Shown here: positions 12,509-37,735 of the stretch, piece by piece
How the letters are laid out: the number at the start of each line of letters is the position of its first letter
Numbering within the stretch: the first letter of the stretch is position 1
Source: Gigantopelta aegis
Taxonomy: Eukaryota
Direction of reading: 5' to 3'
Assembly (NCBI RefSeq): GCF_016097555.1
Contig: NW_024532772.1
Span: 67,754-131,753, forward strand
DNA length: 64,000 bases
Position numbers and translations under genes: made by a program
Notes under the pieces: model-generated
What the model was told of the DNA's origin: nothing
The model's input: the letters and a program-made list of their open reading frames with translations, nothing else
Databases searched by the model: none

Positions 12509-12539
12509 GTTAAACGATTTCTTAAGTATCTTTAATTAT

Positions 12540-12983: not shown

Positions 12984-13017
12984 ATGATGGCTCGTCCTCT
13001 CAGTTCAAAACAACTAA
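12984..13017 (+). CDS. possible first coding exon (MMARPLSSKQL) of the death-domain gene, preceded by a gagaCCACGCCcaat promoter motif
   Basis: ATG followed by a GTAAGA donor at 13018. CCACGCC + CCAAT at 12953-12968. Confidence 0.25.
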
Positions 13018-13235
13018 GTAAGATTGATTGATGTAAATTAATGTGTGATAAGTTGCCAGAACTGATTATATATACTCTTTTGTGTGATTACTTTGCTCTA
13101 GCTACTGTTTAACTTAGGTTGAGTCCAGATAACTGGGGCCTAAGAAATACTTAGGGCTAATAGTTGTTGTTTTTTTTTACTATCGTTTAGTTTGCTCTCA
13201 TCAACTGAGAATGTACCTATCTCATATTCTTACAG

Positions 13236-13470
13236 ATATTACTCATTAAATGAAATACTGGAAGTGTTGAAAGCCAGTCATTTTTTTGGAACGAAACTGG
13301 CTAACCCTTGGTCTCAATCTTGGTCTATTAATGGACACATTAACAACTGTTGAGGCACAATATGGGCCAGATATTGGTCGATGTCTTAAGGAATGTTTGT
13401 CTTTATGGTTACAAAGAATGGACAGGGTTGACGAGAGAGGTGGAACCACTTGGTATGCATTAGCTACTGC
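13236..13470 (+). CDS. death-domain exon. Frame breaks at a T7 run at 13281-13287
   Basis: LNEILEVLKASHF / LERNWLTLGLNLGLLMDTLTTVEAQYGPDIGRCLKECLSLWLQRMDRVDERGGTTWYALATALSK shows the death-domain pattern W..LA..LGL...I..I....L..W....G..AT...L..AL. Acceptor cttacag at 13229-13235. Confidence 0.5.
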
Positions 13471-13562
13471 TCTTAGTAAATAGGAGACAATGTTTCTGCT
13501 GAAAATGCCAGACAGAAAGGTATGTATTAAATGCTTGCATAAAGTCTGATTAAATTTTTTAG

Positions 13563-13866
13563 CACAAGAAGTTGAAAAAGAAAGAGAAATTTTCTCAGCA
13601 CCAGTTTGTCCAAATGCTCAGAAAATACTCCAACAGACTTTCACTTCCAGAGAATATTGTCAAAATATTGTATGAAGAGGGAGTGATCTCAAAAGAGATG
13701 TTAGATGAAGTAAATAGATTGGGAGGTGTACTATGTGATGGTCCATTACGAGCACTGTGTACTAGTGTGTATAAAAACCCTTATATATTAAAGGTGTTCG
13801 CTAGTGTCTTGTTGAAATCTGAACAAACAGTGTCAATTGCTAAAGATATATTGAAGGAATATGGTA
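13563..13866 (+). CDS. CARD/death-fold-like exon
   Basis: HKKLKKKEKFSQHQFVQMLRKYSNRLSLPENIVKILYEEGVISKEMLDEVNRLGGVLCDGPLRALCTSVYKNPYILKVFASVLLKSEQTVSIAKDILKEYG. Acceptor ttttttag, donor GTAAAA. Confidence 0.45.
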
Positions 13867-14018
13867 AAATAAATTATAACTATGTATATATAATTAATTA
13901 TTTTTATAGACCAAGTCTTTCCTTTACAAATCAGTCTCCATCCAACCTACCAATATGATTTTGATCAGATGAGAGTGAACTTTGGCAATCTCATTCACAA
14001 GGTTGCACCTCTCATTGA

Positions 14019-14586
14019 GGCTGGTATTCTTCATTAGAAGAGCTCAAAACATATCTACGGAGATGTTTTAGAGAGCTGAGACCTCAATTATCTGTGGCTA
14101 AATCATTTGATGACATTATGGACCTCGTTCAAGATACATGTACTATCATTAATATTTGTTGCTTGGAGGCCATTGTTGACCAGTATGATATCACAGAAGC
14201 TAAACACCACATTGAAAAGTTCAAGAAAGCAGTTGATGCATTTTGTGAGAAAGTCAAACTGAGCATATGTTGCAATCAGAATTTAAAGATAACTTCCTCA
14301 TCTGTGTCATCTCATCTATGAAACTATTGTGTTTGTTCTTGAATGGGAAGCAGACAAGTACACACTTAATAGCATCAGAGGATTGTTAGCAAAGGCCTTT
14401 GGAAATGTGGCAAAGAGTGTCCAAGTTAGAGCAATAAAAGAAGGCAACTCCATCATTGTTACTTGTTATGCTCCACATTATATATTGGATAATCTACTAA
14501 CAGTAGCAAAGAAGAATCTTGATGTACTAAAAGCTATAGGATTAACAAAACTAACTATTAGCTACCAGACCATTTACAAGGTTAGA
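14019..14586 (+). CDS. further exon(s) of the same gene (Cys-rich helical segment, then ...VQVRAIKEGNSIIVTCYAPHYILDNLLTVAKKNLDVLKAIGLTKLTI)
   Basis: ORFs 14094-14321 and 14329-14589 in adjacent frames. Donor-like GTTAGA at 14584. Confidence 0.3.
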
Positions 14587-14926
14587 TAGTACTATATGAC
14601 CACACCAAGCTTAGTATAAAACATGTTACACTAGCTAGACAAATATTATTTCTTTATCTGTTATTTTCTAGACTATACAGCTACTGAAGATGAAATATGT
14701 CAAATAGAACAAATGAGTAAGGAAGGGAAGGAATGTTGAATATTAAATTTTAATGCCTAATATGATAAACATGTTTGTATGTATAATATATCATATATCT
14801 TTAATATTACAATACTATCCTACCTTATTTAGGAGAGAACATAGAAGTGGCACAAGAAAGTGAAAGTGGGGTGATAATGACAAGTAGATTAAGAGACATC
14901 AAAGAAGATCAGTATCATCTGAGGGA

Positions 14927-16065
14927 ATGAAATGGCATAATTATAATGTTGTTATTACTGGAGGTTGTGGTTTTCTGGGCCTCCATCTTGCTCGACTGCT
15001 TTACCAAAAGGTTCAAGGCATTCATATAATCTTGTTTGATAAGAATCCTGCTGATGAAGCTGCCATGAATTTCATTACTAATGTAGGATATAATAAAGAT
15101 CGTGTCCGTTACAGTGGAAGACACAATGATATTACGATTCTAGAACATCTCAATGCAGCTTTTCAAGATGCTGATGTTGTCTTCCATTGTGCTGCAATAA
15201 CATCCTCATTTGCTCAAATAGATTTCAATAAAAAATGCAGAAAGTCAATGTAGAAGGCACAGCAAATGTTGTCAAAGCTTGTCAGAGACAAGGTGTACGA
15301 GCACTAGTCTTCACTGGTGACTTAGCTCAGGTTTTAAGATCTGGGCTTCATGTACAAGAGGGTATCACTGAAGATGTCATAGTTTCATGATCATGAGGAG
15401 TTAGTAATGGATTGTTTTTGGACGTTCAAAGACTGAAGCAGAGAGGAAAGTCCTCCAAGCAAATGGGTTCAAGACAACCTTATACACTTGTTCAATACGT
15501 TGTCCTCCTTTATATGGAGAAAATGATACTACATTCTTACCAAATGCTTTCTGGGCTGCTGAAAGATTTTGTAAGCATTTTCCTTTAGTTGGACATCCTT
15601 CCGTAAAAATGACTGCTATGTATGTGGAAAATGCAGCCTGGGGTCATATATGTGCAGCAAACAAACTATTGGATGAAAATGCCAGACTTAGAGTTGGTGG
15701 TCAGTTTTATTATGTCACAGATGACACTCCTTCTGAAAGCTACAGTGATTTCTTTAAGCGATTTCTTAAATATCTTGGTTATAATGTGTTACCTATTCGT
15801 CTTCCTGTCCTCCTTCTTACATGTTTTACTTACTTAATGGTTGTCTTGATTGTATTTTTAATGGCTTTTTTTCGATATAAAAGCCCGAGTCGTGTTTTTT
15901 AATTATCGTCGTCAACTTAAAATGTTATCTATCAGTCATACTGTTTCAAGAGAAAAGGCAAGGACTGAGTTGGACTATGAGCCTCACGTTCAATTTGATG
16001 AGGCATTCAGGAAATCTTCTAGATGGTATAATTTTAACATTGGAATGCTTCTAGACATAATATGA
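14927..16065 (+). pseudogene. tandem paralog of the 3beta-HSD-family gene, disrupted by several indels
   Basis: MKWHNYNVVITGGCGFLGLHLARLLYQKVQGIHIILFDKNPADEAAMNFITN... is about 90% identical in nucleotides to 11390-12508. Breaks at 15236 (A6 against A7), 15372-15390 and others. ORFs 14927-15253 and 15609-15902 are its pieces. Confidence 0.7.
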
Positions 16066-16161
16066 CTTTTATTAATATATTTTTATGCGTTAATCTGTTT
16101 CATTTTTTATTAATAACATAATTTTATACTATGGGTGTTGTAGTTTTGACTGATCGCTAGA

Positions 16162-16229
16162 ATGATGTCTTCTGAGGAATGGAGGAGTCTAGGAGACACA
16201 GAAAAACGGCAGGCATTTGTCAGAAAAAC
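16162..16229 (+). CDS. MED15: MED15-like (KIX-domain, Q-rich) locus 1, exon 1
   Basis: MMSSEEWRRLGDTEKRQAFVRKT then donor. Resembles the Mediator-15 KIX start (..DWRS..FRQK.V..I). The same ~400-bp exon1-intron-exon2 module recurs at 26875-27280 and 33700-34100. Confidence 0.5.
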
Positions 16230-16399
16230 GTAGGAGTAATTCAAAAGATGTGTGAACAAAGAGGTGAGTAATTTGATGATATATAATCGAAAGACCCACT
16301 CGTTGTTAAGTTACTTTATAACAAGCTTTGATGTTGATATCTCTCACAAACTGACCTTTAAAATAGAACTATTACTATATTGTTATTGTTCTTGTTCAG

Positions 16400-16487
16400 T
16401 GCTGCGGCAGTGAGGATATTTCCTGAAGTCTTAACTCGTAATCCAGGAGATATAGAAGCTACTATCTACAATAAAGCTAAATCTGAG
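16400..16487 (+). CDS. MED15: MED15-like locus 1, exon 2 (KIX continuation)
   Basis: AAAVRIFPEVLTRNPGDIEATIYNKAKSE between acceptor cttgttcag and donor GTAAGT. Confidence 0.55.
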
Positions 16488-17692
16488 GTAAGTCTCACTT
16501 TGTATATTGACCACTAATGATTACTGTATTGTTTAATATTGTAAATATAACAATATATAATTGTATATTGTATATATTATATAATCTTATCATAATTGAA
16601 ATATTTAAGACTTCTTTGAGCGAAGATACCAGACTATCTTTCGCCATGGAACATGGTAGACTGGGGACAAGACTAAAATAATTAATAAATGTCCCTATAT
16701 GAACTAGGGCACTAAATAGAACACTGTTATTTATTTAGACTTTTCAAAGTATATATCTTTGCTAACTTTTTTACAGAAAGAGTATATGAACTTGGTATAT
16801 AGGATAGTTTTAGCCATTAAATTAGGCCTGTACGATATTCGGATAGATTTAGAACCTCAAGACAGTATGTTCTAATATATATATGGTCTGCTTTTATCAC
16901 TAGAAGCATTGGATACGTCTCAACCGGCATTATAGAGAATGTCTTCTTACGATCAGGACCGGAGGAGGCCCGAAAATGTCTGGTTTCAAGACTTATCTAA
17001 TAATTGATTTGGGAGATACTAACTTTATAGTGAAATATAATTATACCAACTATAAAGTTACAAAGTTTGGATAGTTAGTAACATTGTCTATACTGATCAT
17101 GATAGAATACTATAGAAATGTAACTATATAGGTACCTAGAGAAGCAAAACAGTTTGAGCCTTCAAATTAGTCCCACTGTAAATAATGAAATTAACTATGG
17201 TCACATCCATCATCATACTGAACACTTGCAGCTGGAGTTATATGTTTTGGCAGTTAATGGATGTGGTTTATTTTATATGGTACTTTCAATTATCGCATAC
17301 AACAATAATTATGTTAAATCACAAAACATACTATATATACCATTTGGTTCAAATGATTGTAGGACAGTATGCCAGGCAATAAAAATTGATGCACATACCA
17401 TCCTTCAAGAGATATAATTGTAACCAAAAGGAAGAGTGTATGGCTCTATTATCATATATACATGATCATGAGCAAACAGTATATTCCTGTTTTGCATAAT
17501 TGCTTAGAATGATAATGAAACTATGACATTGCTATAGTAACACTTCCATGTGGATATCTTATGATGTTAACTTACTATGTATAGCTGGCTGTGTTATCTT
17601 CCATCTTTTGGTTACAAATGCATGTGGGCCTATGAACATACATTAATTTTATATGTACATGATAGGACTGTTACTATTGTGGTATTTCTCCT

Positions 17693-17788
17693 ATTTAGTG
17701 CTAAGGCAATGAGAACCTTTTCTGGTGTCTCAGCTAATAATCCAGTTCCTATAGAAACTACTAGTTTTAGTAGTGCAGAGTCTGAGGT
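17693..17788 (+). CDS. MED15: divergent duplicate of exon 2 (AKAMRTFSGVSANNPVPIETTSFSSAESE)
   Basis: Paralogous to 16400-16487 and ends at the same GTAAGT donor. Confidence 0.4.
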
Positions 17789-18428
17789 AAGTGTTTACTT
17801 TTGCTTTTCAAATGTATCCCATAATGTCAAACCACACACTGTCTAATCTCTGACATAGTCTTTAATAAGTCTTTTGGTCTATTGTTGTCTCATTTGATTG
17901 ACTTAGCTGTAGCCTACATGTACATTTACAGTTTAATGTTATTATAAGTTCATTGTTAAAATTGCAAATTCATTGTTAATAGTGTACATGTAGTTAATTC
18001 TATACTGTATATGTATTTTAGTTTATGTCAAAAATGGAACTACAATAAAATGTTAAATAAAAATAAAATTAAACTTTACAATTTGTTGGAGCATTCAACC
18101 TAATCTTTGTTCTTTCTGTGGGGGTTCATTTCTTACTGTGCAAGCTAGGAAGGTGGAAGGAGTTCCATACTCTAACCAATTTATACTCTAACCAATTTGG
18201 TTGTCTTTTTTCATTTCTTGGGATTCTACACATAATTGCATCAATAAGGCATTAATCTAGTTGCTCATCAATCTTATAATTTCACTGACACATATAATAT
18301 ATATGAATGAATGTGACACTGATAATGGAGGATATAGTCATTACTATAACAACACTGCTGTTGTATTCTAACTACACCAAACATTTACTACTTTTCTACT
18401 GTTATTGTTTTGCCTGTAGGATGGATGC

Positions 18429-18500
18429 ATGAGCACAAGAAATGTGGCAATTCAGCTAATGCAGCAACAACAGCTTTATGTTGGATACCAACCGCAAACA
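18429..18500 (+). CDS. MED15: Q-rich exon (DGCMSTRNVAIQLMQQQQLYVGYQPQT)
   Basis: Acceptor tgcctgtag, donor GTATAT. Confidence 0.4.
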
Positions 18501-18888
18501 GGTATATGCATATTCATTTATTATATAAGTAAATTAAAATTAGACTAAAAAAATAAATTCATGAAATTTATTACCTCCAAATTTAATGACCCAATCAAAT
18601 GTAAGTATTCAAATCCTCATCCACAGATTTTATAGCAAATGGGAAGGTTTTTAACAGAGTGCTAAAATGGCATAGAATGGCTAAAATGGCTAATTTTGCC
18701 AAATATAGTTTTCAAAAGTTAGTTGTGTATAGCATTGTATTTTTGAAGTTATCATGGTGTATAAGAATTATGGATAAAGAAGAAATAGAAAAGGACATCA
18801 TAGCATCCCTACTACTATAATTACATAATTTACCTTGAATTACATGTCTCATCTTGTATCATGTAAGGTCTTTATACTATACATGCAG

Positions 18889-21800
18889 GAGGCGAAATGA
18901 TGCAAAGACCGCAAGGAATGAGGGAAAGGAATCGTGTGAACCATAATGTCCCGGTAGATCCTACAGGCCTAGGATATTCCAGCTGTCCACCTGGAATGCG
19001 TCTAATGCATCCACCAGTACATTATGAACAACCTGCTGGTATGCGTATGGTAAACCAACCTACTCCTCAGCTGACAATGCACAATATGACACAGCAACAG
19101 GAACAACAGGAATGTCAATATCCACGGCAACCAGATAGATGGCAACCACAATCAGGTAGATTTATAATTCTTTTACTCAATCACTGATTTTGTCAGTTCA
19201 TACACTTTTGTAATAACAATAATTTATAACAACACAGTTTCAAATCCATATATTGAAAGTCTCATACAAGCATTAGTCTCACACACATATACTTTAAAAG
19301 TATTGTACCCTACCTTAAAAATCTAATGTGTACCTCCTCAGCCATACATTAATAGTCTCATACTAATACATATATACAGGAAGTGAAATGATACAAAACC
19401 CACAAGAAATGACAGAAAGGGATCATGTGGACCAGAATATTCATGTAGCTCCTACAGGATATTCCAACTGTCCAACTGGAATGCATTTAATGCATCCACC
19501 AGTACATTATGAACAACCTCCTGGTGTGCGTATGGTAAACCAACCTACTCCTCAGCTGACAATGCACAATATGACACAGCAACAGGAACAACAGGATGTC
19601 AATATCCACGGCAACCAGATAGATGGCAACCACAATCAGGTAGATTTATAATTCTTTTACTCAATCACTGATTTTGTCAGTTCATACACTTTTGTAATAA
19701 CAATCATTTATAACAACACAGTTTCAAATCCATATATTGAAAGTCTCATACAAGCAGTAGTCTCACACACATATACTTTAAAAGTCTTGTACCCTACCTT
19801 AAAAATCTAATGTGTACCTCCTCAGCCATACATTAATAGTCTCATACTAATACATATATACAGGAAGTGAAATGATACAAAACCCACAAGAAATGACAGA
19901 AAGGGATCATGTGGACCAGAATATTCATGTAGCTCCTACAGGATATTCCAACTGTCCAACTGGAATGCATTTAATGCATCCACCAGTACATTATGAACAA
20001 CCTGCTGGTATGCGTATGGTAAACCAACCTACTCCTCAGCTGACAATGCACAATATGACACAGCAACAGGAACAACAGGAATGTCAATATCCACGGCAAC
20101 CAGATAGATGGCAACCACAATTAGGTAGATTTATAATTCTTTTACTCAATCACTGATTTTGTCAGTTCATACACTTTTGTAATAACAATAATTTATAACA
20201 ACACAGTTTCAAATCCATATATTGAAAGTCTCATACAAGCATTAGTCTCACACACATATACTTTAAAAGTATTGTACCCTACCTTAAAAATCTAATGTGT
20301 ACCTCCTCAGCCATACATTAATAGTCTCATACTAATACATATATACAGGAAGTGAAATGATACAAAACCCACAAGAAATGACAGAAAGGGATCATGTGGA
20401 CCAGAATATTCATGTAGCTCCTACAGGATATTCCAACTGTCCAACTGGAATGCATTTAATGCATCCACCAGTACATTATGAACAACCTCCTGGTGTGCGT
20501 ATGGTAAACCAACCTACTCCTCAGCTGACAATGCACAATATGACACAGCAACAGGAACAACAGGAATGTCAATATCCACGGCAACCAGATAGATGGCAAC
20601 CACAATCAGGTAGATTTATAATTCTTTTACTCAATCACTGATTTTGTCAGTTCATACACTTTTGTAATAACAATCATTTATAACAACACAGTTTCAAATC
20701 CATATATTGAAAGTCTCATACAAGCAGTAGTCTCACACACATATACTTTAAAAGTCTTGTACCCTACCTTAAAAATCTAATGTGTACCTCCTCAGCCATA
20801 CATTAATAGTCTCATACTAATACATATATACAGGAAGTGAAATGATACAAAAACCCACAAGAAATGACAGAAAGGGATCATGTGGACCAGAATATTCATG
20901 TAGCTCCTACAGGATATTCCAACTGTCCAACTGGAATGCATTTAATGCATCCACCAGTACATTATGAACAACCTCCTGGTGTGCGTATGGTAAACCAACC
21001 TACTCCTCAGCTGACAATGCACAATATGACACAGCAACAGGAACAACAGGAATGTCAATATCCACGGCAACCAGATAGATGGCAACCACAATCAGGTAGA
21101 TTTATAATTCTTTTACTCAATCACTGATTTTGTCAGTTCATACACTTTTGTAATAACAATAATTTATAACAACACAGTTTCAAATCCATATATTGAAAGT
21201 CTCATACAAGCAGTAGTCTCACACACATATACTTTAAAAGTCTTGTACCCTACCTTAAAAATCTAATGTGTACCTCCTCAGCCATACATTAATAGTCTCA
21301 TACTAATACATATATACAGGAAGTGAAATGATACAAAACCCACAAGAAATGACAGAAAGGGATCATGTGGACCAGAATATTCATGTAGCTCCTACAGGAT
21401 ATTCCAACTGTCCAACTGGAATGCATTTAATGCATCCACCAGTACATTATGAACAACCTCCTGGTGTGCGTATGGTAAACCAACCTACTCCTCAGCTGAC
21501 AATGCACAATATGACACAGCAACAGGAACAACAGGAATGTCAATATCCACGGCAACCAGATAGATGGCAACCACAATCAGGTAGATTTATAATTCTTTTA
21601 CTCAATCACTGATTTTGTCAGTTCATACACTTTTGTAATAACAATAATTTATAACAACACAGTTTCAAATCCATATATTGAAAGTCTCATACAAGCAGTA
21701 GTCTCACACACATATACTTTAAAAGTCTTGTACCCTACTTAAAAATCTAATGTGTACCTCCTCAGCCATACATTAATAGTCTCATACTAATACATATATA

Positions 21801-23016
21801 CAGGAAGTGAAATGATACAAAACCCACAAGAAATGACAGAAAGGGATCATGTGGACCAGAATATTCAGCTCCTACAGGATATTCCAACTGTCCAACTGGA
21901 ATGCATTTAATGCATCCACCAGTACATTATGAACAACCTGCTGGTATGCGTATGGTAAACCAACCTACTCCTCAGCTGACAATGCACAATATGACACAGC
22001 AACAGGAACAACAGGAATGTCAATATCACGGCAACCAGATAGATGGCAACCACAATCAGGTAGATTTATAATTCTTTACTCAATCACTGATTTTGTCAGT
22101 TCATACACTTTTATTTATAACAACACAGTTTCAAATCCAGTCTCATACAAGCATTAGTCTCACACACATATACTTTAAAAGTATTGTACCCTACCTTAAA
22201 AATCTAATGTGTACCTCCTCAGCCATATATTAAAGTCTCATACTAATACATATATACAGGAAGTGAATAACTGGTATGCAACCACCTATGATACAAAACC
22301 CACAAGAAATGACAGAAAGGGATCATGTGGACCAGAATATTCATGTAGCTCCTACAGGATATTCCAACTGTCCAACTGGAATGCATTTAATGCATCCACC
22401 AGTACATTATGAACAACCTCCTGGTGTGCGTATGGTAAACCAACCTACTCCTCAGCTGACAATGCACAATATGACACAGCAACAGGAACAACAGGAATGT
22501 CAATATCCACGGCAACCAGATAGATGGCAACCACAATCAGGTAGATTTATAATTCTTTTACTCAATCACTGATTTTGTCAGTTCATACACTTTTGTAATA
22601 ACAATCATTTATAACAACACAGTTTCAAATCCATATATTGAAAGTCTCATACAAGCAGTAGTCTCACACACATATACTTTAAAAGTCTTGTACCCTACCT
22701 TAAAAATCTAATGTGTACCTCCTCAGCCATACATTAATAGTCTCATACTAATACATATATACAGGAAGTGAAATGATACAAAACCCACAAGAAATGACAG
22801 AAAGGGATCATGTGGACCCAGTAGCTCCTACAGGATATTCCAGCTGTCCACCTGGAATGTGTCTAATGCATCCACCAGTACATTATGAACAATCTCCTGG
22901 TATGCGTATGGTAAACCAACCTACTCCTCAGCTGACAATGCACAATATGACACAGCAACAGGAACAACAGGAATGTCAATATCCATGGCAACCAGATAGA
23001 TGGCGACCACAATCAG
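18889..23016 (+). CDS. MED15: array of 10 tandemly duplicated symmetric exons (261 bp, phase 1-1) spaced about 485 bp apart, each encoding an 87-aa M/H/P/Q-rich module
   Basis: For example exon 20349-20609 lies between acceptor atatacag and donor GTAGAT. It encodes (G)SEMIQNPQEMTERDHVDQNIHVAPTGYSNCPTGMHLMHPPVHYEQPPGVRMVNQPTPQLTMHNMTQQQEQQECQYPRQPDRWQPQS. Units begin near 18889, 19380, 19864, 20349, 20835, 21320, 21805, 22280, 22765. Units 21805 and 22765 carry small deletions. Confidence 0.7.
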
Positions 23017-23187
23017 GTAGATTTATAATTCTTTTACTCAATCATTGTATTTTTGTATGATAAAAATACAAACAAGCCTTAGTTTTATACCCATACAGTA
23101 AACGTTTCATACCCATGCATTGAAGTCTCATAGTCATTAATTAAAACTTTGATTCTTGTGTACACAGGAGGTGAAATGATGCAAAGG

Positions 23188-24340
23188 TCACGAGGAATGA
23201 AGGAAGGGAATTATGTGAACCATAGTATGCCAAGAGGTGTACGTCAACCAGATCCAACAGGATATCCCAGGTTTCAACCAGTAATGGATCTAATGCAGCC
23301 ACCAGCACATTATGGACCACATTCTGGTATGGGTATGCCAAGAATGATAAACCAACCTACTCCTCGGCCTGCATTGTATAACATGCCACAGTCAGGAGGC
23401 TCTGTGATGCAAAGACATCCACATATGGGAAGTCACCCTAGAATGGTTCGTCCACCTATGAACCCTCCTCCATTCATGACAAGGGGAATGCAACTAGGAA
23501 CAACTGTAATGCAGCTTTCTGGAGAACATTGTCAAATGATGACTCATCCTTATACTAGTGTAGTCAGCTCTTTACATCATCCTCCAAGTCATTTGCCAGT
23601 GGTGTCTCACTTTCTCTCTGAAACCCCTTCGACATTCTTTTCCAAAATGTTTCAAACACCGCAAAGACCCATTAGTGGTCCTCGATCATCTGTATCTCAT
23701 CTAGTTATTCAAGACAAATCAAAATCACTCCTCATAAACGAAATCTACACTCTCAATGTGATAAACTAAGCAAAAGACCAATTAATCCTCTCCTATCTTT
23801 ACCATTATCATCAGCTTCATTAGTGAATTCTGAAACTGTTATTGTATCTCCAAATGATTCATCTGGTTTTGTTTATAATAGTGTAGATGTGCCAATATCA
23901 TCAGAGCATCAATATGAAAGAAAGAAATCCATTGAAGAGGAACAGAAAAATGGCAGAAAATCACCAAAACAAGTGAAAACAAAAGAACCTCCTGACATAG
24001 CGCAATGTAAGATCACATCTAGTGCTTTTAAAAATGTTTCTTCTTTGGTGGTGGTATCATCAGATCATGAACATAATGTAATGACTACTCAAGAATCATT
24101 AGTTAGGCAGGGTCATCTATATTTTAAAGACCGTTCAAGGAAGCAATCAAATGAAATTGCATGTTGTAGTGATACAATCAATCAACAGTCATGGAAGGAG
24201 GGATGGGCTGATGGGTGGATGAATGGATGGATGGATGCATCAAAAGGTCTACCTCTGAATCCTGAAATACCGTTCAATTATAAAAATTTACCTCCAGAGC
24301 TAACAAGACCATCATCACTACCAAATTTTCAATTAACTAT
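23188..24340 (+). CDS. MED15: downstream M/P/H/Q-rich low-complexity exons of locus 1
   Basis: GGEMMQRSRGMKEG...MMQRHPHMGSHPRMVRPPMNPPPFMTRGMQLG... Paralogous to 27741-28195 and 34568-35158. Confidence 0.45.
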
Positions 24341-24945
24341 AGTAAGTAACCCATGTTATTGTGATAGCAAATTGCATTTTTGAGCAAGAATAGTACATTA
24401 TATTTAAAGGATAATGATTTTTCATTATTAACAAATGTTTGTATATGTCATGCTGTCGCTGCTACAAATGTATCATTCAGAGGAACCAAGTATATATGAA
24501 ACTACAAATCAAAATTGTGTGTTATATTGTATATATATATGAACCAATTAATAATATTCAATAATTTGTATGCTTTAATTTGTTTTTGCACAATAAATGC
24601 TTTACCAGCCACAATTAAGACAATGCATTGATTTCTTTTATTTCAGTAATGTATAAGAGAAACAACCTTATCAATGAAATTCATCATGCATCCTATTGAT
24701 GTTAGTGATCAGTTTATGCCACCATTAGCAAGCAATTAGCTTGAAAAAGTGATTTGAGGCCACAAGTCCCACTTTGATATGCCTGCATATCAAACAATAA
24801 CTAATACTAATGCACTCTTCTTTATATGTAGTGTTCTCACAAAATACTTTGACACAAAGTGTACAAGAGGGAAACGTCACAGGAACACACCAATCCATTG
24901 GTAAGTATAATGAAGCCAACAATGGATGAATATTTTCATATTTCT

Positions 24946-25160
24946 AGATAAAATATTTCAAACCTATTTTGATGATCTTTGTGTGGCAATCGAAGCTTAC
25001 CCACTCCGCATTGTTAATAAACTTATTTCTTCTCAACTAATAGATTCTACTGTTAGAAAAGATGTAACAGATATGCAGAGTGCATATCAAAAGGCTAACA
25101 AAATTGTTATGAGTATTGAGAGCTGTTTAAAAGGTAATAATAATCAACTTGAATATCTGC
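24946..25160 (+). CDS. helical death-fold-like exon of unknown family
   Basis: DKIFQTYFDDLCVAIEAYPLRIVNKLISSQLIDSTVRKDVTDMQSAYQKANKIVMSIESCLK between acceptor tatttctag and donor GTAATA. A degenerate paralog lies at 33165-33460. Confidence 0.3.
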
Positions 25161-25837
25161 AAAAGTTTTGCGACTTTCTTCAAAACAAAGTTGATTATAG
25201 AATTCTTAATATATTGGTGCTAAAATGGGGACTGATTGTAAATTAGCTTACCCCTTTCTTCTGTAGAAAAGAGGGTCTGGAATTAGACTCTTTTAATAAT
25301 TTATATTATAAAATCATACATTCTAGGTTATTTATTTGAAATTTATAATCTAAACCTAACATTATAGTAAAAACAGTTTCTATAGAAACTATACAAGAAC
25401 TCCTAAAAGTATTATTCCAAATATGTATATAATAATTATCTGTATTTTTTGTTTTAAACAATAGCAAAATTTTTATACTTTTCTATTATTCTGTCAATCC
25501 GAAAATCAGTTCATTGCTGATGTTGGAAAAAATATTAACATTTAGATAGTGTGGTAATGAATGTTTAATATAGGGGGTGGTGCATTTTACGACCAGTTTA
25601 GAAATCATGATGTCTGTCACGGAATATCTGGACCCCCGAAATAATTGTTACCCGGAACAATTATTTCAAAGTTTTAAATGAAAGGAAACGGCCGCCTTTG
25701 AAATGTAGTGACCCCCTTTATATATTTCACACTTTTTTCAAGTTCTCTGTCAGATGCTAGTAACATATCATTGAGCGACCATAAAATGGCATGCTTGAGC
25801 GCTTGGTGTTACAGTAGATCTACTGGACGAACGGAGC

Positions 25838-26629
25838 ATGGACTCAGAAAGTGAAATCAGTACCACTGAGCCCGAAGACCTGATTTTAGATCTAGCCATC
25901 CATTATGCTGTACATCGCAGCTATCCACCAGGGTCGTCAAAGGAGAAAGCAGTACTTATTAATAATGGCTGGCTGACAGACAAGATCATCAATGAAGCTC
26001 AAAGTTTACTGAAGAAAAAATACCCCTATGTTAATGGACTTCAGGATGTGACACTAGGACTACTTTGTCATTTGCTATACAAACAGAGGAGTTTGTTCAA
26101 TTTTTCATACTGGACATGCCCACTGGGTAACAGTTACCAACATTGGTTGCAAAGATGGGGAAATCAACATCTTCGATAGCTATCCCCCAGTCACTACAAC
26201 ACACCTACTAGACCAGATTGCAGCACTGCTTGCAACTCCAAGATCTACCAGATATATGGACACCCAACTGCAGTGTGGTTCAACAGACTGTGGCATCTTC
26301 GCCATTGCATTTGCTGCAACCCTAGCAAATGGGATTAACCTGGGGCTTTCCATTTTGATCAGCCACAAATGCGAAAGCACTTGATACACTGTCTAGAAAC
26401 ACAGTGTCTCTCAGACTTTCCAGTTCAGCGAAGAAGGAGAAGAGGAAATGTAGTTAAGCATTCATATGCTCTGTACATCTACTGTTCCTGTAGAATGCCT
26501 GAACATCCAGGATGTACAATGGTGCAGTGCTCTACCTGTGGAGAGTGGTTCCATGTTGGTGTATGTGTGACTATACCCACTGAAATTTTAGACTCATCTA
26601 CAAAGTGGTCCTGTAACAAGTGTATTTAG
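25838..26629 (+). CDS. intronless Ulp1/SENP-like (C48) cysteine protease with a C-terminal PHD-type zinc finger. Frame slips at a T5 run near 26104
   Basis: LINNGWLTDKIINEAQSLL (the WLND-type motif), FHTGHAHWVTVTNIGCKDGEINIFDSY (His and Asp), QCGSTDCGIFAIAFAATLANG (Gln and Cys), then CSCRMPEHPGCTMVQCSTCGEWFHVGCVTIPTEILDSSTKWSCNKC. Confidence 0.6.
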
Positions 26630-26881
26630 TATAGTGTCAACACATTGCAACATAGAGATTATTAATTATTCATGGTGGTCTTTATGTTTTAGTTTTGTTG
26701 AAATATTAGTTCCAGGGGGGGGGCAATATATTATGAAAAAGAAGGACCTAGGGGGGATTTATTATTTCAGAGAGGGTTCATATATTTCAACATGCCACTG
26801 AAATATAAGTTCCAGGGGGATCAAATATTGCAAAATATTAGGACCGGGGGAACAAATTAAGGGGAACCAATTTTTTGTGAC

Positions 26882-27193
26882 ATGTCTTCTGAGGAATGGA
26901 GGAGACCAGAAAAACGACAGGCAATTGTTAGGAAAATGTAAGAGTAATATTAAAAGATGTATGGACAAATAGATGAATGAACTGATGATATTGAATCGAA
27001 AGACCCACTTGTTGTTAAAGTTATATTATAACAAGCTTTGATGATATTCTTACAAACTGACCTTTAGAATAGAATTGTTACTATATTGTTATTGTTCTTG
27101 TTCAGTGCTGAGGCAGTGAGAATGTTTCCTGGAGTCTCAACTTGTAATCCAGGAGATGTAGAAGCTACTATTTACAACAAAGCTAAATCTGAG
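26882..27193 (+). CDS. MED15: MED15-like locus 2, exons 1-2 (KIX)
   Basis: MSSEEWRRPEKRQAIVRKM..., then intron, then exon 27106-27193 AEAVRMFPGVSTCNPGDVEATIYNKAKSE. Confidence 0.5.
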
Positions 27194-27740
27194 GTCAGTC
27201 TCACTTGTATATTGACCACACTACTGATTACTTTATTGTTTAATATTGTAAAGATAACAATACATCATTAACACAGTATTTATTGTTATATCAAAAAAAT
27301 ATATAATTATAACAAATATAAAAAATATCACAACAATCACTATAATATGAATACAAAATGTTTAATTATAATAAATTACAGTTTAATAATTGGGACATTA
27401 AATAGAACATCTTAATGGGTCTATATTTTTCCTAATCTATTTTATAGCATGAGTATATGAACATGGTTGGTAAGATAGATTTGTCTATTAAGCATAGAGG
27501 AATGGGACTGATCCAACAAACAACAACATCCTGCACAGCAACCAGGCGGATGGCAACCACAACCAGGTAGATAGATAAATGTTAAAGATCTTGTACCCAT
27601 CCAATGAAAGTGCGATACCTATAAATTAAAACTCTCACACACCTGTTCAGTAACCTCTTACTCATACATTAAAATGTCTCATACTCATACACTTGAACTC
27701 TCATACCCATTATTAAGAGCTTTCATTCTCATGTGCACAG

Positions 27741-28195
27741 GGGCACATTGTAGACCACATTCTGGTATTGGTATGCTAAGAATGATAAACCAACCTACTC
27801 CTCAGCCTGCAATGTATAACATGCCACAGTCGGGAGGCCGTATGATGCAAAGACATCCACATATGGGAAGTCACCCTGGAATGGTTCGTCCACCTATGAA
27901 CCTCCCTCCATTTATGACAAGGGGAATGCCACCGGGACAATGCCTCCAATGAGACCTGTAATGAATATGGCCTCGATGCAGGGTTCTGGGAAAACAAGTG
28001 GTGACAGCATTACCTAATCCATATATCACTGGAGTTGACCCTGCCCATCAACCTCCCGGCCATCCATCTGGTGCTCCCTCCCCTTATTCCAGAAGTGCTT
28101 CCTCGTCTGTTTATCAACCCTCTCATCCAACAGCTTCTTCAGGTGCACCTCCTCCACAACCACATCCTCCTCAGACCAATTCTCCAAAGCCTCGT
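27741..28195 (+). CDS. MED15: MED15-like locus 2, Q/P/M/S/Y-rich exon with two apparent 1-nt frameshifts
   Basis: ...MINQPTPQPAMYNMPQSGGRMMQRHPHMGSHPGMVRPPMNLPPFMTRGMPPG / MRPVMNMASMQGSGK / VTALPNPYITGVDPAHQPPGHPSGAPSPYSRSASSSVYQPSHPTASSGAPPPQPHPPQTNSPKPR, then GTAAGT. Confidence 0.45.
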
Positions 28196-28282
28196 GTAAG
28201 TTTGATAATTACCAATACATGAACGATCCTCCTTTTCCATATAGCCTCATATCCCATATCTCATATCCCATATCCCATCTCC

Positions 28283-28325
28283 CAATACTCCTTGGAATCC
28301 AATTAAGAAACTCTTTGTTGAGAAA
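28283..28325 (+). CDS. MED15: locus 2 remnant of the conserved Med15 C-terminal motif exon (..LRNSLLRKKR). The preceding ~320 bp present in locus 3 is deleted
   Basis: Alignment of 28270-28330 against 35270-35680. Confidence 0.35.
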
Positions 28326-29959
28326 GAAACGGGTAACTGCTTTGATAATCTAAGATCATCCACTCTCTATCTCTTTCCATTTATTTCATATTACTTTGTC
28401 TCCAACTTCCTCTCTTCTCATATGCCTTTTTCTATATCCAAATACAGCCCTTCTGATAAGTCACCTCCTAAGAAGAAAGCAAGTTTTGAAAACCAAAGTT
28501 GTTTACATAAAGTATATTATGAATTTATATATTCTTACCTAATACAGTTACATAAGGTATTATTATATATAGTAAAACACTTAATATAATATAGTAATGA
28601 GGAGCATATTAGCTTGCAACATTGGTACTATTATTTAAAGGAGAAGGTTGGGTATAAAGCAGTATGTGTGTGTGTGGGGGGGGTGTTACTATAGCAACAA
28701 TATTATAAATTGTTAATTGCAAGTAAACATTACTTCTTTCTTAACAACCAAGTAGGCTATTTATAGTATATCCTGTGTTTGATCATTTGTAATTATATTA
28801 AATGATAGTATGGGACTGTATACACTTCTTGGTTATGTTCTCTTACGAGGCAATTAACTATTAAATAAATGGTGTGAATATATTATTTATAATTCAAGAC
28901 TATTAGGCAATAGATTAAACAAGAGTATAAATCGAGATTGTCTTGACAGTACTAGGCTCTTATCTATGCTATTGTCTATAATACACAATGAGACTTCTCT
29001 ACCTAAGTGCTTGAACCTAAGCGTTTTTGTTAGCACCCTACTTAGATATTCAGTCAAGTTAAATGATTAACTAAAGATTCCAAGTTGGCAAAAGTAACAT
29101 CTTTCTTTGTCACTTACAAATGGAATCATTAGCTTCTATGTAAAAAAGCAAGGTTTCATTTTTGACAGTTATTATAGTGAAAAAAGCTTTATGGCTAAAG
29201 TTTGAAGTATTTACTGACTACATCAGAACTGTACCCATAATTCAATTTCTTAGCATTAACATCATATATTATCAAATTTTAATCTGCCTTACTTAATTTT
29301 ATATCTCTCCATTTTCCCACATTTTTTCCTTTATAATATCTTAAGGTACTATTAAGGAACAACAAGCCAATAAATTAGAGTTTGAAGAATTTAAAATTGC
29401 CACAGAAGTACAGAGTAAGGTTCGAATTGTTATATTAAGTAAATAGGATCAATTACAATGTCATTTCTTTAGATGTATCTGTTCTTCAAAATAATGCACG
29501 TTTTAGACAAGTATTTGAAAAGGCTACACCAGAACAAAGAAAGGTATGAAGATGATTAGTGACTATATGTTTATTATTATATTCTCTTTAAGATGTTAAT
29601 GGCCAGATTTGAACAAAAAGCACGACAGCAAGAACAAATCAGTATGTTTATAGTCTTCTAAATAATAAGTGTTACTTTGATGGTTATGTGCAGTGATGAA
29701 AGCTTTATGGCTAGTTAAATTCTAAAGAATACATCAGAACTGTACCCATAATTCAATTTCTTAGCATTAACATCATATATTATCAAATTTTAATCTGCCT
29801 TACTTAATTTTATATCTCTCCATTTTCCACATTTTTCTCATCCTAAGTCCTTGATCCTTTTAATGGCAATGAAGTAGTGTAACTTTTAATCATTATTTAT
29901 TTTGCATTGTCCATGTGTGTGACATTAAGAGAGGTTGGGGAATAGCATACCATAGAAAT

Positions 29960-30007
29960 TCTAAATGATGTCACAGCACTGTATCTGGATACAATGCTGT
30001 GACATCA
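29960..30007. other. perfect 13-bp inverted repeat TGATGTCACAGCA(N22)TGCTGTGACATCA
   Basis: Seen directly, 30 bp upstream of the Roc P-loop ORF. Confidence 0.6.
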
Positions 30008-30038
30008 CTTTATCAAGTGTAAGCACCTTTTTGTCATT

Positions 30039-30263
30039 ATGAAAATTGAAATTGTATCATGTCGAGTTTTTACTATATCTTGTTGTCCTTATTGTAGAGA
30101 TCTCACAACAGACTTTCACACGAAGTCTACAGAGGGATATGTCCGCCTTACTATTTTAAAAATTATTTCAATTGGACCTCCAGGAGTAGGAAAAACGTCA
30201 TTCAAGTCTCTCCTTTTTAATTGGCCTCCAGTTTTACAGCACCACAGTACTGGTATAGACTAG
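30039..30263 (+). CDS. Ras-like/Roc GTPase P-loop exon (G1 motif)
   Basis: LKIISIGPPGVGKTSFKSLLFNWPP. Confidence 0.45.
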   Translation: MKIEIVSCRVFTISCCPYCRDLTTDFHTKSTEGYVRLTILKIISIGPPGVGKTSFKSLLFNWPPVLQHHSTGID

Positions 30264-31094
30264 TCGTCCTGTTAAAAGCCATTGAAAGAATGATTGGAAC
30301 AAAATGATGAGAAGATCTGGGAAAATGTCACAGCAGAGAGATTATTAAGTATATAACAGGTGCTATGAACGCACTCGAAACTATAAACCCAGCTGTTTCT
30401 GATCTGTTACTGGAAGTCATAGTGATTATTTGGTAGAAAATCCTACTTTCCTCCAATCTTCCACAAACAAGAAGTAGAATTTCAGTCCAGAAAGTATCAT
30501 CTGAGCTACAACCTGACCCTCATTTATTCAACAAAAATATTAGAGCCATTGGAAAAAGAAGGTATCTGAAGAGCTCTACCAGTCAACTTGGATCTATTTC
30601 TTGTGATAGTGGTGGTCAACCACACTTTGCTGATGTATCTCCGAGCTTTATTCGTTTTCTAACACCATTTATACTATTGCTATCAAATTAACTGATAGAC
30701 TATCAGATAGACCTGCATTTTGTTATTCTTTAAAAGGCAAGTACTCACCAATCCTAGTGAACTATGTATGAGCAATTTACAACTTATCAAGCATTTTGTT
30801 CGCTCTATGGTTTCATCAAAATCAGATGCACCTTCTAAGAGCAGTAAATCTTTGATATTTATTATTGGTACTTGTTCTGATCTGTATTATTCTAATGTGT
30901 CAAATATGGAGTCTATTAAAGAAAAAGATAATCGCTTATATCTGAGTTAGGTGAGTTCGGGGAGCACTTAATTTTTCATAATGAACTCTCACATGAATTG
31001 ATTCATCCTGTCAACAATTTGTGTGAAGGGGAGTATCGTGAGAAGCTCTCTCTAAGTTAAGGCAAGTATTTATGAGTCGGATAAAGAAAGCTGA

Positions 31095-31354
31095 AGTGGA
31101 GGTCCAAATACCAATACGATGGTTTGTATTTGAAATTATGATGAAAGACCAGGGTGTCAGGTGAGGGGAATAGTTACTTTGGAGATTATGTTATTACAAT
31201 TGGCCGAAAGTTGGGTATAGAAGAACACGAAGTAACAGAATGTTTGAAGTACTTTGATTCTTTGTCATTAGTTCTTTATTTTCCCAAGATCCTTCCCAAT
31301 ATAATCTTCTCTAATTTTCAGTATCTTCAACTTGACATGCTTTCAAATCTCTGA
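31095..31354 (+). CDS. COR-domain-like segment, frameshifted
   Basis: IRWFVFEIMMKDQGVR / GEGNSYFGDYVITIGRKLGIEEHEVTECLKYFDSLSLVLYFPKILPNIIFSNFQYL resembles the COR-A motif L.FLHDLG.LLHF....L...VFLDPQWL. Confidence 0.3.
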
Positions 31355-33699
31355 TAAGCATTTCATTTGTAAATTATAGTTTAACTCTGGTGCTCAAATT
31401 AAAACTACGAGACGAGGGAATATATTGAAGAATCATTATTGGATGAGTTACCTACACTGAAGTTGTTCCATTACACTTCACAAAGACAGAGTTCTTAAAA
31501 TTACTCAAATATCTTGTATTGTCGCTCCTATTTCATCAACATTGATTTATTCCTGTTGTTTATCAGTGAAGGAGAAGAAGAAAGAAAAGTTAAAGAATGA
31601 TAATATAGAAACAAATGATTATTAAGTTTCAAAATCGGGAGTAGTACCTCAGGTAAATAAACACAAAGCTAATAAATTACTCTAATAAACAGCAACAACG
31701 ACACTATTAATGACTAATCAATGGCCACTGCATGATTGTATGAGGGTTGTCTGTCTGTTTAGATATATGACAAATATAACATGTAGGTAATAATACAATA
31801 ACAATAATATATAATATGTCAACTTTGTAGTTGTTGTAATCCATTTCCACCAATCGGGACCAAATAAAAACCAGCTGGTAAAAGCATTAGCTACTACAAC
31901 TAACTAAATAATTTTGGATATATTGTCATGTATCTGTTGAATATTATATGTCTGCATAGTGTGACTCGTGAATGTTGATTGCTAAAAGTAAACAAGAAAG
32001 AGGAAGAGGAATTTTAGATGAGGATTCTGAAGTTTAATATTTCTATTCTTTCTAGGGTGTATTTCTGGCAGAGTAGTTGTGGGTTGTAAACAGGAGAAAT
32101 TATCCAAAGTTCTCTGTAGATTTAAAAGTAGAACAAATGAGACAAGCAGTGGAACTCTTCTATCATGATCTCAGTGCAACCACTTGTACTAATTGAAGAA
32201 TTTCAATGGATTGAAGTACATTTTTTTGGTGACAGAGAAAACGTGTCATGATTTAAAGAAGCTATCAGTGAAACTATATTATCTTGTGCTGATCTACTTG
32301 CTTATGATTTTTCAATAGTGGGAATTGTTATTTCAGTGCCCTGTCGGCTACCACATGAGGAAGGGTTCTTACCCATTTCATCATTTTCCGTTATCAATAA
32401 AGAATCCCTTATCATCAATTGCCCATATGAAAAGCGTTTTTTTTTTTTTGCGTTCAAGATTATCACCTAACCAACAATGCTGGTTTAACCAGGGTTAAGT
32501 TAGTAGTCAAAGTTAGTTACATATTTCAATTGTAATTGACATATGTACAAGATAGCAGGTTGAGTATTGGTCATGTTTGTAAGTATCCTCCATGTCAATC
32601 AATTGTGTATTAACTTGGTCCTTCTATGCTTGTAGACACTTGCCAAATTGTTTCTAAAGCTCTGACAAACAGAGATGCTTTGACACTACTAATGCCTATT
32701 AAGTATGAATCGATTTTTAATGTTTTCATCCATGTTTTTGTGTGTGCCTCATGACAATGCTTTTACATTATAAATAATACAACTATAAGTAACTGGAAAA
32801 CTGTCACAACATATTGATTACAGACTCATACTACATTAACATATATGAGTGATTTGATAACTATATAGTTAGTTTTTAACAAGAGTGGCAGAAGGTCAAA
32901 GTTAACATGAACAGACTCTTAAGTCTTTGATTTTGCAGGTTGATGTTAACAATAATAATACTGTACTACATACTACAGAGGTAAGTTTGATATCTCTCAT
33001 TTCACTTTGTACTAGATGCAGTTCAGAAATCTTTCAGGAATTATTTGCTATTACTGATTTTGCAGGGTTGTACTATTACTGATTTGCCAATACCATTGGT
33101 AAGTATATTAAAGTCATCAGTATAATTATATAAACTTATAATGCCTTTTCTTTCAAAGATCCTCTTAATATATTTCAAACCTATTCTGCTAATCTTTTGT
33201 GATGCTATTGAGCTGATCCCCTTCGTATTGTTAATAGGCTTATTTCTCATAGACTGGTACGACCAAGTATTAGAAAATGAATATTACAACAATGACTGGT
33301 ACAGCATATGACCAAAGCTAGCAAAATTACTCAAAAGTATTGAGAGCTATTTAGAAGGCCAGTAATGAACAAGTCAAATTTCTACAAAATCTTTGTGACT
33401 TTCTTCAAAACAATGTTGAAGATAGAACTCTTAATGATATTGGTGCTAATATGAGGAAACTGTTGTAAATCACTTTTCATAAAGTCAGTGGAAAAGCTAT
33501 CACCTCTCTTCTCAGAAGGCATGGCTACACAAGATTACCACTTGACATTATCTGTTGAGTCAATGCAAGAGAGATATTAGAAACATATTATTTATTATAA
33601 TAGACACAATTTTGACAATTTTACTGAATGGGTGTGGCCTCGGTGGTGATTATATTTGTGGGGTGGGCATTCCATGACTACACAACTATTCCATGACTA

Positions 33700-34349
33700 A
33701 GAAATCATGATGTCTTCTGAGGAAGGAGGAGACCAGAAAAAGCGACAGGAATTGTCAGGAAAATGTAAGAATAATATTAAAAGGCCCACTTATTGTTAAA
33801 GTTACATTTATAACAAGCTTTGATGTTGATATCTCTCACAAACTGACCTTTAGAATAGAACTATTACTATATCGTTGTTTGTTATTCTTTTTGTTCAGTG
33901 CTGATCCCCCGGGCAGTGAGGATGTTTCCTGAAGTCTTAACTCGTAATCCAGGGATGTAGAAGCTACCCTATCTACACACAAAGCTAAATCTGAGGTAAG
34001 TGGTCACTTTGTATATTGACCACTAATGATTTACTTTATTGTTTACATATTGTAAATATACCAATACATCATTAATTAGTATCATATTGGTATGTCTAAA
34101 ATATATATGGATTATAACAAATGTAAAAGATATCATATCAACAGTAATGTGAATAAAAAATACCCTCATTTAATGATAATTAATAGATTTACTGATAATA
34201 ACAAGATTGTAAGATTAGTAATTGGGACATGTAATAGAAACGTACTTAATGGGTATATATTTTTGCTAATCTCTTTTATAGCATGAGTCTTATGAACAGG
34301 GTTGGTAAGATAGTTTTGTCTATTAAGCATAGAGGAATGGGACTGATTG

Positions 34350-34380
<31 letters not shown>

Positions 34381-37654: not shown

Positions 37655-37686
37655 ATGTAATAATAATAATAATAATAAACAATAAC

Positions 37687-37731
<45 letters not shown>

Positions 37732-37735
37732 GTGT
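37655..37735. repeat. (ATT)n/(AAT)n microsatellite
   Basis: aataataataataataat... ORF 37630-37860 is its translation. Confidence 0.9.

Follow-up and report, generated by a model that had tools for sequence, protein, structure and literature searches.

Does the 64-kb stretch of the Gigantopelta aegis genome analyzed here, in which coding pieces of death-fold proteins and of a Roc-COR GTPase lie close together and are interrupted by frameshifts, hold decaying gene fragments or working genes? This stretch, designated as the window, is 64,000 nucleotides (nt) long and corresponds to positions 67,754 to 131,753 of the forward strand of contig NW_024532772.1 (NCBI RefSeq assembly GCF_016097555.1). 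An initial annotation had described death-fold and Roc-COR gene fragments here and ascribed their broken state to rapid turnover; most of what it observed is correct, and its interpretation is half right. The locus is fairly probably a tandem cluster of three intact protein-coding genes sharing death-fold interaction domains, not a set of decaying fragments. These genes are designated as gene A (13236–14585), gene B (23176–25266), and gene C, the last of which includes the Roc-COR GTPase. All of their features are on the plus strand, and all coordinates refer to the whole 64-kb stretch. They are real and probably working signalling genes, and the locus is a rather unremarkable example of a gene class that is expanded in invertebrates. 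Both gene families are large, with more than 240 clusters for gene A and more than 270 for the Roc-COR family at 90% identity. The GC content of the window is 30–40%, and its genes are compact with short GT-AG introns.

The nearest relatives of the window were found in long unannotated contigs from ENA metagenome assemblies and from Logan assemblies, with no named protein among them. An exact-protein look-up with two open reading frames (ORFs) of the window returned no match. Related loci fetched for comparison are designated as L001, L002, L005, L007/L008, and L009. L001 and L002 show 85–90% identity to the window and represent other species or lineages, and L005 shows 92–94% identity. L007 and L008 are two stretches of a single 216,721-bp contig, and they probably originate from the same species as the window because the identity is 97.5% over 13 kb and 99.7% over 1.5 kb. 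L009 is a second contig from the same sample, and the locus is structurally different there. The window represents a third haplotype, 3–5% diverged from L008 and L009. The Pfam gathering scores used below are 22.6 bits for Death (PF00531), 23.9 bits for CARD (PF00619), 27 bits for Roc, and 35.3 bits for COR-A.

In gene A, a Death domain and a CARD-fold domain are followed by an uncharacterized module composed of a helical part and an alpha/beta part. The Death-domain exon (13236–13519) lies between an AG acceptor ending at 13235 and a GT donor starting at 13520. Its start had been placed correctly in the initial annotation, while its end had been placed at 13470. The frame-corrected translation of the window scores 21.9 bits (E-value 1.9 × 10−4) for Death, just under the gathering score, and the orthologues from L007 (23.6 bits) and L001 (27.0 bits) pass this curated threshold. 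The exon opens in phase 1, and therefore one or more exons further upstream, carrying the start codon, are still missing. The CARD-fold exon (CARD-like1; 13563–13863) begins directly after an AG acceptor, at the position annotated before, and its donor is three bases away from the previously proposed end at 13866. The terminal exon (13910–14585) encodes the helical and ferredoxin-like alpha/beta module up to the stop codon. In the clean contig L007, the junctions between the three exons are all in phase 1 and match, the two introns measure 43 and 46 nt, and the spliced product would be one protein including Death, CARD-like, and C-terminal parts and a stop. The earlier assignment of the Death and CARD-like exons to one plus-strand gene is thus upheld by splice phases that stay in frame.

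CARD-like1 is a six-helix death fold closest to CARD structures. It scores 15.3 bits for Pfam CARD, and 2 of the 34 members of its family match this Pfam entry with an E-value of 0.1 or below (best 1.1 × 10−4). Since its score is under the curated threshold, it is classified as a CARD-fold domain and not as a member of Pfam CARD. The family search with concatenated ORFs of gene A revealed at least 249 clusters at 90% identity. Most of them are ORFs of about 213 amino acids (aa) corresponding to the last exon, without a Pfam match, and a few read-through ORFs fuse the CARD-like part, or the Death and CARD-like parts, to the C-terminal module. The structure of a family member, P0010, was predicted with AlphaFold from a 60-sequence alignment, with a mean predicted local distance difference test score (pLDDT) of 79. 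The model is composed of a six-helix bundle (residues 1–93, pLDDT about 90), a second helical domain (residues 113–224), and an alpha/beta domain (residues 238–325) with a beta-alpha-beta-beta unit, after which come two helices and a further pair of strands. Foldseek against PDB returned no match to this model below the E-value of 0.02, listing just generic ferredoxin-like designs and eIF2-alpha with low TM scores; because these matches are generic and weak, no function is assigned to the C-terminal module. The profiles of the gene A family and of CARD-like1 showed no meaningful match to PDB sequences. As part of the fairly probable reading given above, gene A would encode a bipartite adaptor-type protein, with Death followed by the CARD fold and a lineage-specific helical and ferredoxin-like module.

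In another locus, L004 (3429–4835 and 12233–13051), a distant gene A paralogue, P0011, carries Death-like, CARD-like, and C-terminal parts in one ORF. It sits between ORFs with matches to ribonuclease-inhibitor-type LRRs (LRR_TMOD-LMOD and PRAME_C). This setting hints that the gene A family is also present in other genomic contexts.

The core of gene C is a long Roc-COR-A exon (30098–31652), recognized through intact orthologous ORFs, Pfam matches in homologues, and AlphaFold and Foldseek analysis. It includes the P-loop GPPGVGKTS (30174–30200), the motif DSGGQ (30605–30619), and IIGTCSD (30861–30881), in which GTCSD represents GTxxD in the G4 position; COR-A starts at 31108 with IPIRWFVFE, and LVLYFPK follows at 31268. 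The P-loop had been seen before, in a supposed exon of its own (30039–30263), and it is a part of this longer exon. The COR-like segment annotated at 31095–31354 coincides with the first half of the region that Pfam COR-A covers in the relatives. The ORF of this exon is intact in L008 (520 aa), L001 (556 aa), L002 (523 aa), and L009 (527 and 541 aa). ROCO proteins such as LRRK2 have a G4 motif of the T-H-x-D type. Among 43 aligned homologues of the gene C GTPase, G1 (GxxxxGKT) and G3 (DxGGQ) are invariant, as are the G and D residues of GTxxD, and T is nearly so. Gene C has the P-loop, the DxxG switch II, and the guanine-specificity motif of a Ras-like G domain. Using the 556-aa orthologue from L001 as a query, 273 clusters at 90% identity were found, all from unannotated contigs in metagenome assemblies, and many of them have precomputed Roc and COR-A matches. 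Pfam Roc matches 30 of the 43 homologues (best E-value 2.5 × 10−7), mostly below the threshold, and Pfam COR-A matches 23 (best E-value 1.8 × 10−7). COR-A was placed at residues 329–490 of P0125 (E-value 5.1 × 10−7) and at residues 339–419 of P0376.

The predicted structure agrees with these matches. P0121, a close orthologue of the gene C GTPase, was modelled with a pLDDT of 74.9 and a predicted template modelling score of 0.77. The first 24 places in the Foldseek list are all occupied by Roc-COR tandems, aligned over about 425–510 columns and covering both COR-A and the G domain. They include LRRK1 (E-value 5.6 × 10−11), LRRK2, Methanosarcina barkeri Roco2 RocCORdC (TM score 0.71 on the target), and Chlorobium tepidum Roco; the alignments to the LRRK1, LRRK2, and Roco structures span about 480–500 columns. 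COR-A is thus found packed next to Roc, in the orthologue and the family rather than in the noisy translation of the window. These results corroborate the presence of a Roc-COR GTPase downstream, as had been proposed. The profile of the Roc-COR family against PDB sequences gave no meaningful match, the best being Ypt7 with an E-value of 0.065. Between the P-loop and DxxG, the protein has a poorly conserved, low-confidence insertion, about 120 aa in gene C and up to about 230 aa in paralogues, which is predicted to be disordered; the remainder of the protein is well conserved in the alignment including P0236, P0221, and P0145.

Two exons are likely to follow the Roc-COR-A exon. The next exon (32056–32493), a putative COR-B, has an AG acceptor in phase 0 with the CAG|GT donor at 31652, and ends with a phase-1 donor. 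The terminal exon (33159–33468), designated as CARD-like2, has a phase-1 acceptor matching the donor at 32493, reaches a stop codon, and is intact in L008. The same splice chain is seen in L008, where the Roc-COR-A exon ends with CAG|GTAAAT in phase 0, the next exon is in frame with a phase-1 GTAAGT donor, and CARD-like2 has a phase-1 acceptor and a stop. The ORF of the putative COR-B exon is open in L001 (155 aa), L008 (125 aa), and L009 (124 and 126 aa); no Pfam family matched it. Gene C would not be a fragment; within the fairly probable reading it encodes a small ROCO-type GTPase with Roc, COR-A, and a putative COR-B, and with a CARD-like C-terminus. No LRR, kinase, or WD40 domain was found in its exons or in neighbouring ORFs. 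Upstream, proline/glutamine-rich (P/Q-rich) ORFs (27674–28222) are homologous to a 207-aa ORF of L008, whose N-terminal part is missing or diverged in the window, and may represent the 5′ exon of gene C. No compatible splice phases were found that would connect the P/Q-rich exon with the Roc exon, and the sole link between them is P0123 (L009, 6001–7626), in which the first 40 P/Q-rich codons are fused in frame to the Roc-COR exon, and this fusion looks like a deletion at a short microhomology.

Gene B is composed of a P/Q-rich region and a CARD-like2 exon of the same type as the terminal exon of gene C. The P/Q-rich exon (23176–24341) is one 391-aa ORF in L008 and two ORFs in the window; it ends with a phase-1 GTAAGT donor and has no match to any Pfam family. 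The terminal exon (24948–25266) has a phase-1 AG acceptor that matches the donor at 24341. A second death-fold-like exon had been annotated at 24946–25160; a conserved exon indeed exists there with corrected boundaries, its death fold is probable, and it has a paralogous copy at 33159–33468. CARD-like2 has 28 representatives among 1.8 billion proteins. One relative, P0359, matches Pfam CARD with an E-value of 5 × 10−4. The comparison of the CARD-like2 and CARD-like1 profiles with hhalign gave a P-value of 1.4 × 10−4 and a probability of 53%, colinear over 73–96 columns, that is, over the whole domain. The CARD-like2 profile matched nothing among PDB sequences, and hhalign of the family profiles against a single Apaf-1 CARD sequence was uninformative. 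CARD-like2 is probably a death fold, and the support from these sequence comparisons is moderate. Another relative, P0345 (1213 aa), includes nine near-identical 99-aa tandem repeats followed by an unrelated C-terminal region. Its summed Pfam CARD score of 76.7 bits was discounted as support for a death fold because it sums nine near-identical repeats, and unrelated families are also "significant" on this protein.

Upstream of gene B, Tandem Repeats Finder revealed a tandem array of 8.5 copies of a 485-bp unit (18971–23053, plus strand, 95% matches). According to tblastn, the unit is a duplicate of the 5′ portion of the P/Q-rich exon, and each copy has an ORF of about 94 aa beginning with MIQNPQEMTERDH. 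About three copies are present in L007/L008, and the difference is either copy-number polymorphism or an assembly difference.

The reading frames of these genes are interrupted in the window. Literal translation of the pieces delimited in the initial annotation gives stop codons in three of the five, owing to the choice of frame and to 1-nt indels. Compared with L001, L005, and L007, the 1-nt indels private to the window are mostly changes in homopolymer length. They number 7 in gene A, 5 in the second of two 3-beta-HSD gene copies flanking it, and about 40 in the Roc-COR-A exon. In gene A, window-only 1-nt homopolymer indels are at 13246, 13281, and 13478 in the Death exon, and window-only indels are at 14029, 14304, and 14577 in the terminal exon. 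All of these ORFs are open in L007/L008, L009, L001, L002, and L005. The Roc-COR-A exon of the window differs from that of L007/L008 by 49 substitutions and 40 indels (20 insertions and 20 deletions), with no stop codon left after frame correction. At 3574–7573, 4 kb of DNA near-identical to L007 show 12 indels and just 4 substitutions, and at 33090–42239, including unrelated genes, 235 substitutions were counted along with 227 indels, of which 166 involve a single nucleotide. In a three-taxon test, the window lineage has 96 private substitutions, distributed over the codon positions as 25, 16, and 55, and 30 unique indels. The ratio of gap openings to mismatches is 0.13–0.26 in most long alignments between clean contigs and 0.08 in the most similar pair, while it is 0.4–1.2 for the window. 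The density of indels against L007/L008 is uneven, with 3–5 per kb at 3.5–16.5 kb, 25–30 per kb at 30–40 kb, and almost none at 16984–18478.

One rival explanation is a pseudogene graveyard, in which the Roc-COR gene, the second 3-beta-HSD copy, and the Death/CARD gene would all be dead and accumulating frameshifts. The counts of frameshifting indels given above would suit this explanation, as would the first 3-beta-HSD copy (11258–12508), which has none over 1251 nt and looks as if selection acted on one copy only, and the difference in copy number of the locus between haplotypes. Decay would nevertheless have to leave no stop codon after frame correction and equal numbers of insertions and deletions. 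The skew of the window-private substitutions to codon position 3 is as strong as in the intact orthologues, which disfavours long neutral decay. The indel density in the Roc ORF is as high as that in intergenic DNA despite a lower substitution rate, and non-coding DNA that is almost identical between the contigs is nonetheless interrupted by indels. Over 9 kb that include unrelated genes, the numbers of indels and substitutions are nearly equal, while the ratio is 0.08–0.26 in most long alignments between clean contigs. Pseudogenization was the first reading of the frameshifts and was dropped after the three-taxon codon-position test and the comparison with the contigs probably from the same species. 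The graveyard is considered decidedly unlikely. Most likely, the frameshifts of the window reflect errors in the consensus of a noisy, incompletely polished assembly, as judged from these alignments. Thus, the pieces are frameshifted in the window, as had been noticed, and yet they are parts of full-length genes and their frameshifts look technical. The inference of rapid turnover or decay from them is not supported, given ORFs intact in two apparently same-species contigs and in further relatives, and an abnormal indel-to-substitution ratio in the window.

Two other explanations concern the identity of the domains and the architecture of the genes. The domains might be over-interpreted, being generic helical bundles and a generic P-loop NTPase of, for example, AIG/GIMAP, dynamin-like, or STAND ATPase type. 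The Pfam matches on the window itself are sub-threshold or absent, the family profile reaches PDB sequences only at the Ypt7 match mentioned above, no CARD is among the Foldseek matches of the gene A model, and the dynamin-like proteins IniA and BDLP appear lower in the fold list of the Roc-COR model. This explanation is highly improbable when set against the 24 leading Roc-COR tandems aligned over both COR-A and the G domain, the ROCO-specific COR-A found in over half of the homologues (23 of 43), and the orthologues passing the curated threshold for Death. The architecture could also differ, if CARD-like2 formed a small gene of its own or opened the next tandem unit as its first exon, and the P/Q-rich exon were unrelated to the GTPase; no Roc-COR-CARD protein would then exist. 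CARD-like2 is also found behind a P/Q-rich ORF without Roc-COR in gene B, the gaps between exons of gene C are 440–670 bp, far above the introns of 43–46 nt in gene A, and the exon joins come from splice consensus and phase. However, the COR-B exon has no in-frame stop ahead of its consensus phase-1 GTAAGT donor, and the CARD-like2 exon has a phase-1 acceptor behind a pyrimidine tract and a terminal stop, and it lacks its own start codon where the conserved boundary lies; gene B obeys the same phase logic. This different architecture is rather unlikely.

Several points weigh against the presence of three intact death-fold genes and temper the confidence in it. The exons of each gene would form single transcripts, and for the joining of exons and the position of 5′ ends, splice consensus and phase are the sole basis. 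Profile searches for Death, CARD, Roc, and COR, the domains named in the initial annotation, matched Death, Roc, and COR-A in relatives, while the Roc-COR translation of the window itself had no Pfam match with an E-value of 0.1 or below. The gathering score of Roc is passed in a few members only, one of them with 31.4 against 27 bits, and the COR-A scores in relatives stay under theirs (30.1 against 35.3 bits). The putative COR-B is named by position only because no Pfam family matched it. The CARD-like2 copies from the locus have no Pfam CARD match and no individually significant match in Pfam or PDB. Since the first 3-beta-HSD copy has no indels, the sequencing noise must be patchy and not uniform, and some of the indels, though a minority, may represent true alleles, since the window is a third haplotype with 3–5% divergence in this part. 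The functional role proposed for the three genes is drawn purely by analogy; GTPase activity, CARD-CARD pairing, and a role in immunity or apoptosis would be expected from the proteins compared below.

The arrangement proposed for gene C resembles that of DAPK1, a member of the ROCO family, in which a death domain follows Roc-COR. In both, a Roc-COR tandem precedes a C-terminal death-fold domain, a probable one in gene C, and the Pfam Roc model itself is named for the DAPkinase Roc domain. This likeness suggests death-fold signalling regulated by GTP. Unlike DAPK1, gene C is devoid of kinase, ankyrin, and calmodulin-binding regions and ends with a CARD-like instead of a Death domain, and it has the disordered insertion of 120–230 aa between the P-loop and DxxG and possibly a P/Q-rich N-terminus. 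LRRK1/LRRK2 and the prokaryotic Roco proteins of C. tepidum and M. barkeri (Roco2) are the best structural matches over Roc and COR-A (Foldseek E-values 5.6 × 10−11 to 1 × 10−6), with a sequence identity of just 11–14%; LRR, kinase, and WD40 domains, as noted above, were not found in gene C or nearby ORFs. RAIDD/CRADD is a bipartite adaptor with a CARD and a Death domain. Gene A is similar to it in carrying Death and a CARD fold in one small protein, an adaptor bridging two death-fold subfamilies, but the order of the two is reversed, and gene A has an extra module of about 210 aa, helical and ferredoxin-like, that belongs to no known family. Sequence similarity between gene A and RAIDD was neither sought nor found.

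Lineage-specific genes combining Roc/COR with Death or TIR domains, NG1 and NG3, have been described from sea anemones (actiniarians) (PMC5094078), and ROCO genes of brown algae have been proposed as immune receptors (PMC11378527). Like gene C, they are lineage-specific and expanded, and they join Roc-COR to immune-type interaction domains through domain shuffling. NG1/NG3 carry LRR/TIR or kinase/Death/TIR/SH3 domains and the algal ROCO proteins carry LRR repertoires, whereas the partner in gene C is CARD-like and no repeat-type sensor accompanies it. Sponges have large repertoires of Death, CARD, and NACHT domains (PMC12909245), including expanded animal NLRs in which NACHT-LRR is preceded by an N-terminal CARD or Death (PMC12909245, PMC3879445). 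Gene C would, like NLRs, couple an NTPase switch to a death-fold signalling domain, and both belong to large, tandemly arrayed families; in gene C, neither NACHT/NB-ARC nor LRRs are present, a Ras-like G domain serves as the NTPase, and the probable death fold lies at the C-terminus. NACHT and NB-ARC (STAND NTPase) were absent from all ORFs scanned and from the Pfam annotations precomputed for the clean orthologous loci, and nSTAND3 matches stayed at the level of P-loop noise (E-values 0.02–0.18). The initial annotation had regarded the pieces as building blocks of expanded receptor and adaptor families; expanded death-fold and ROCO families of this kind are known in early-branching animals (PMC5094078, PMC12909245), and the STAND module it mentioned as one option is missing here. 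Since Roc/COR with Death or TIR, ROCO immune candidates, and Death/CARD/NACHT repertoires have already been described, the locus does not represent a new kind.

By analogy with LRRK2, DAPK1, C. tepidum Roco, and death-fold signalling, the mechanism considered most likely is a clustering of the CARD-like domain gated by GTP. In ROCO proteins, COR dimerization depends on the bound nucleotide, and death folds polymerize homotypically. In gene C, the nucleotide state of Roc and COR-mediated dimerization would control the exposure or clustering of the C-terminal CARD-like domain. The clustered domain would then seed homotypic assemblies of death folds, in which the gene B product or gene A-like adaptors could be partners, and the assemblies would relay the signal to caspase-type or other effectors. 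A bolder and doubtful extension is that the Roc-COR-CARD genes constitute a large lineage-specific family of minimal ROCO switches, an NLR-like repertoire of innate sensors in which a Ras-type GTPase instead of a STAND ATPase gates CARD polymerization and the Death-CARD family supplies matching adaptors or effectors. The sole highly variable part of such sensors would be the disordered 120–230-aa insertion that lies in the G domain at switch I, a suggestion as tentative as the extension itself. If the architecture holds, a compact design of Roc-COR plus a CARD-like domain is added to the ROCO repertoire, together with a Death-CARD adaptor family bearing an unclassified C-terminal module, both families being expanded and variable in copy number. 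It would also help trace how death-fold signalling became wired to different NTPase switches. For genome annotation, ORF-based methods will over-call pseudogenes in the assembly of the window, and gene-family counts and inferences of rapid turnover from it would be biased because the apparent pseudogenization is most likely an artefact of assembly quality.

Turnover at this locus is real only as variation in copy number and structure between haplotypes. The 3-beta-HSD genes flank gene A, and the tandemly duplicated unit is composed of a 3-beta-HSD gene and the Death-CARD gene; two such units are present in L001, and one each in L002, L005, L007, and the window. In L009, two tandem Roc-COR units come right after the 3-beta-HSD gene, while L008 and the window have gene B and one Roc-COR unit. 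In the window, the first copy (11258–12508) is an intact intronless 3-beta-HSD/NAD-dependent epimerase gene, followed by a 300-bp fragment of the C-terminal part of 3-beta-HSD (12510–12813). The second copy (14847–16065), with its five 1-nt indels in the window, is intact in the relatives.

A 1.4-kb segment between genes B and C (25486–26894) is private to the window; L008 lacks it at this position, and neither the fetched loci nor the rest of the window showed a match to it. It has two ORFs, one of which includes a PHD finger (26369–26629, Pfam E-value 7.7 × 10−7), and the segment may have come from a mobile element of which it is a fragment. On the minus strand at 4076–4828, a 250-aa ORF is composed of tandem peptide repeats of about 20 aa, including PTNQLPDEITPSNQLSNEA.

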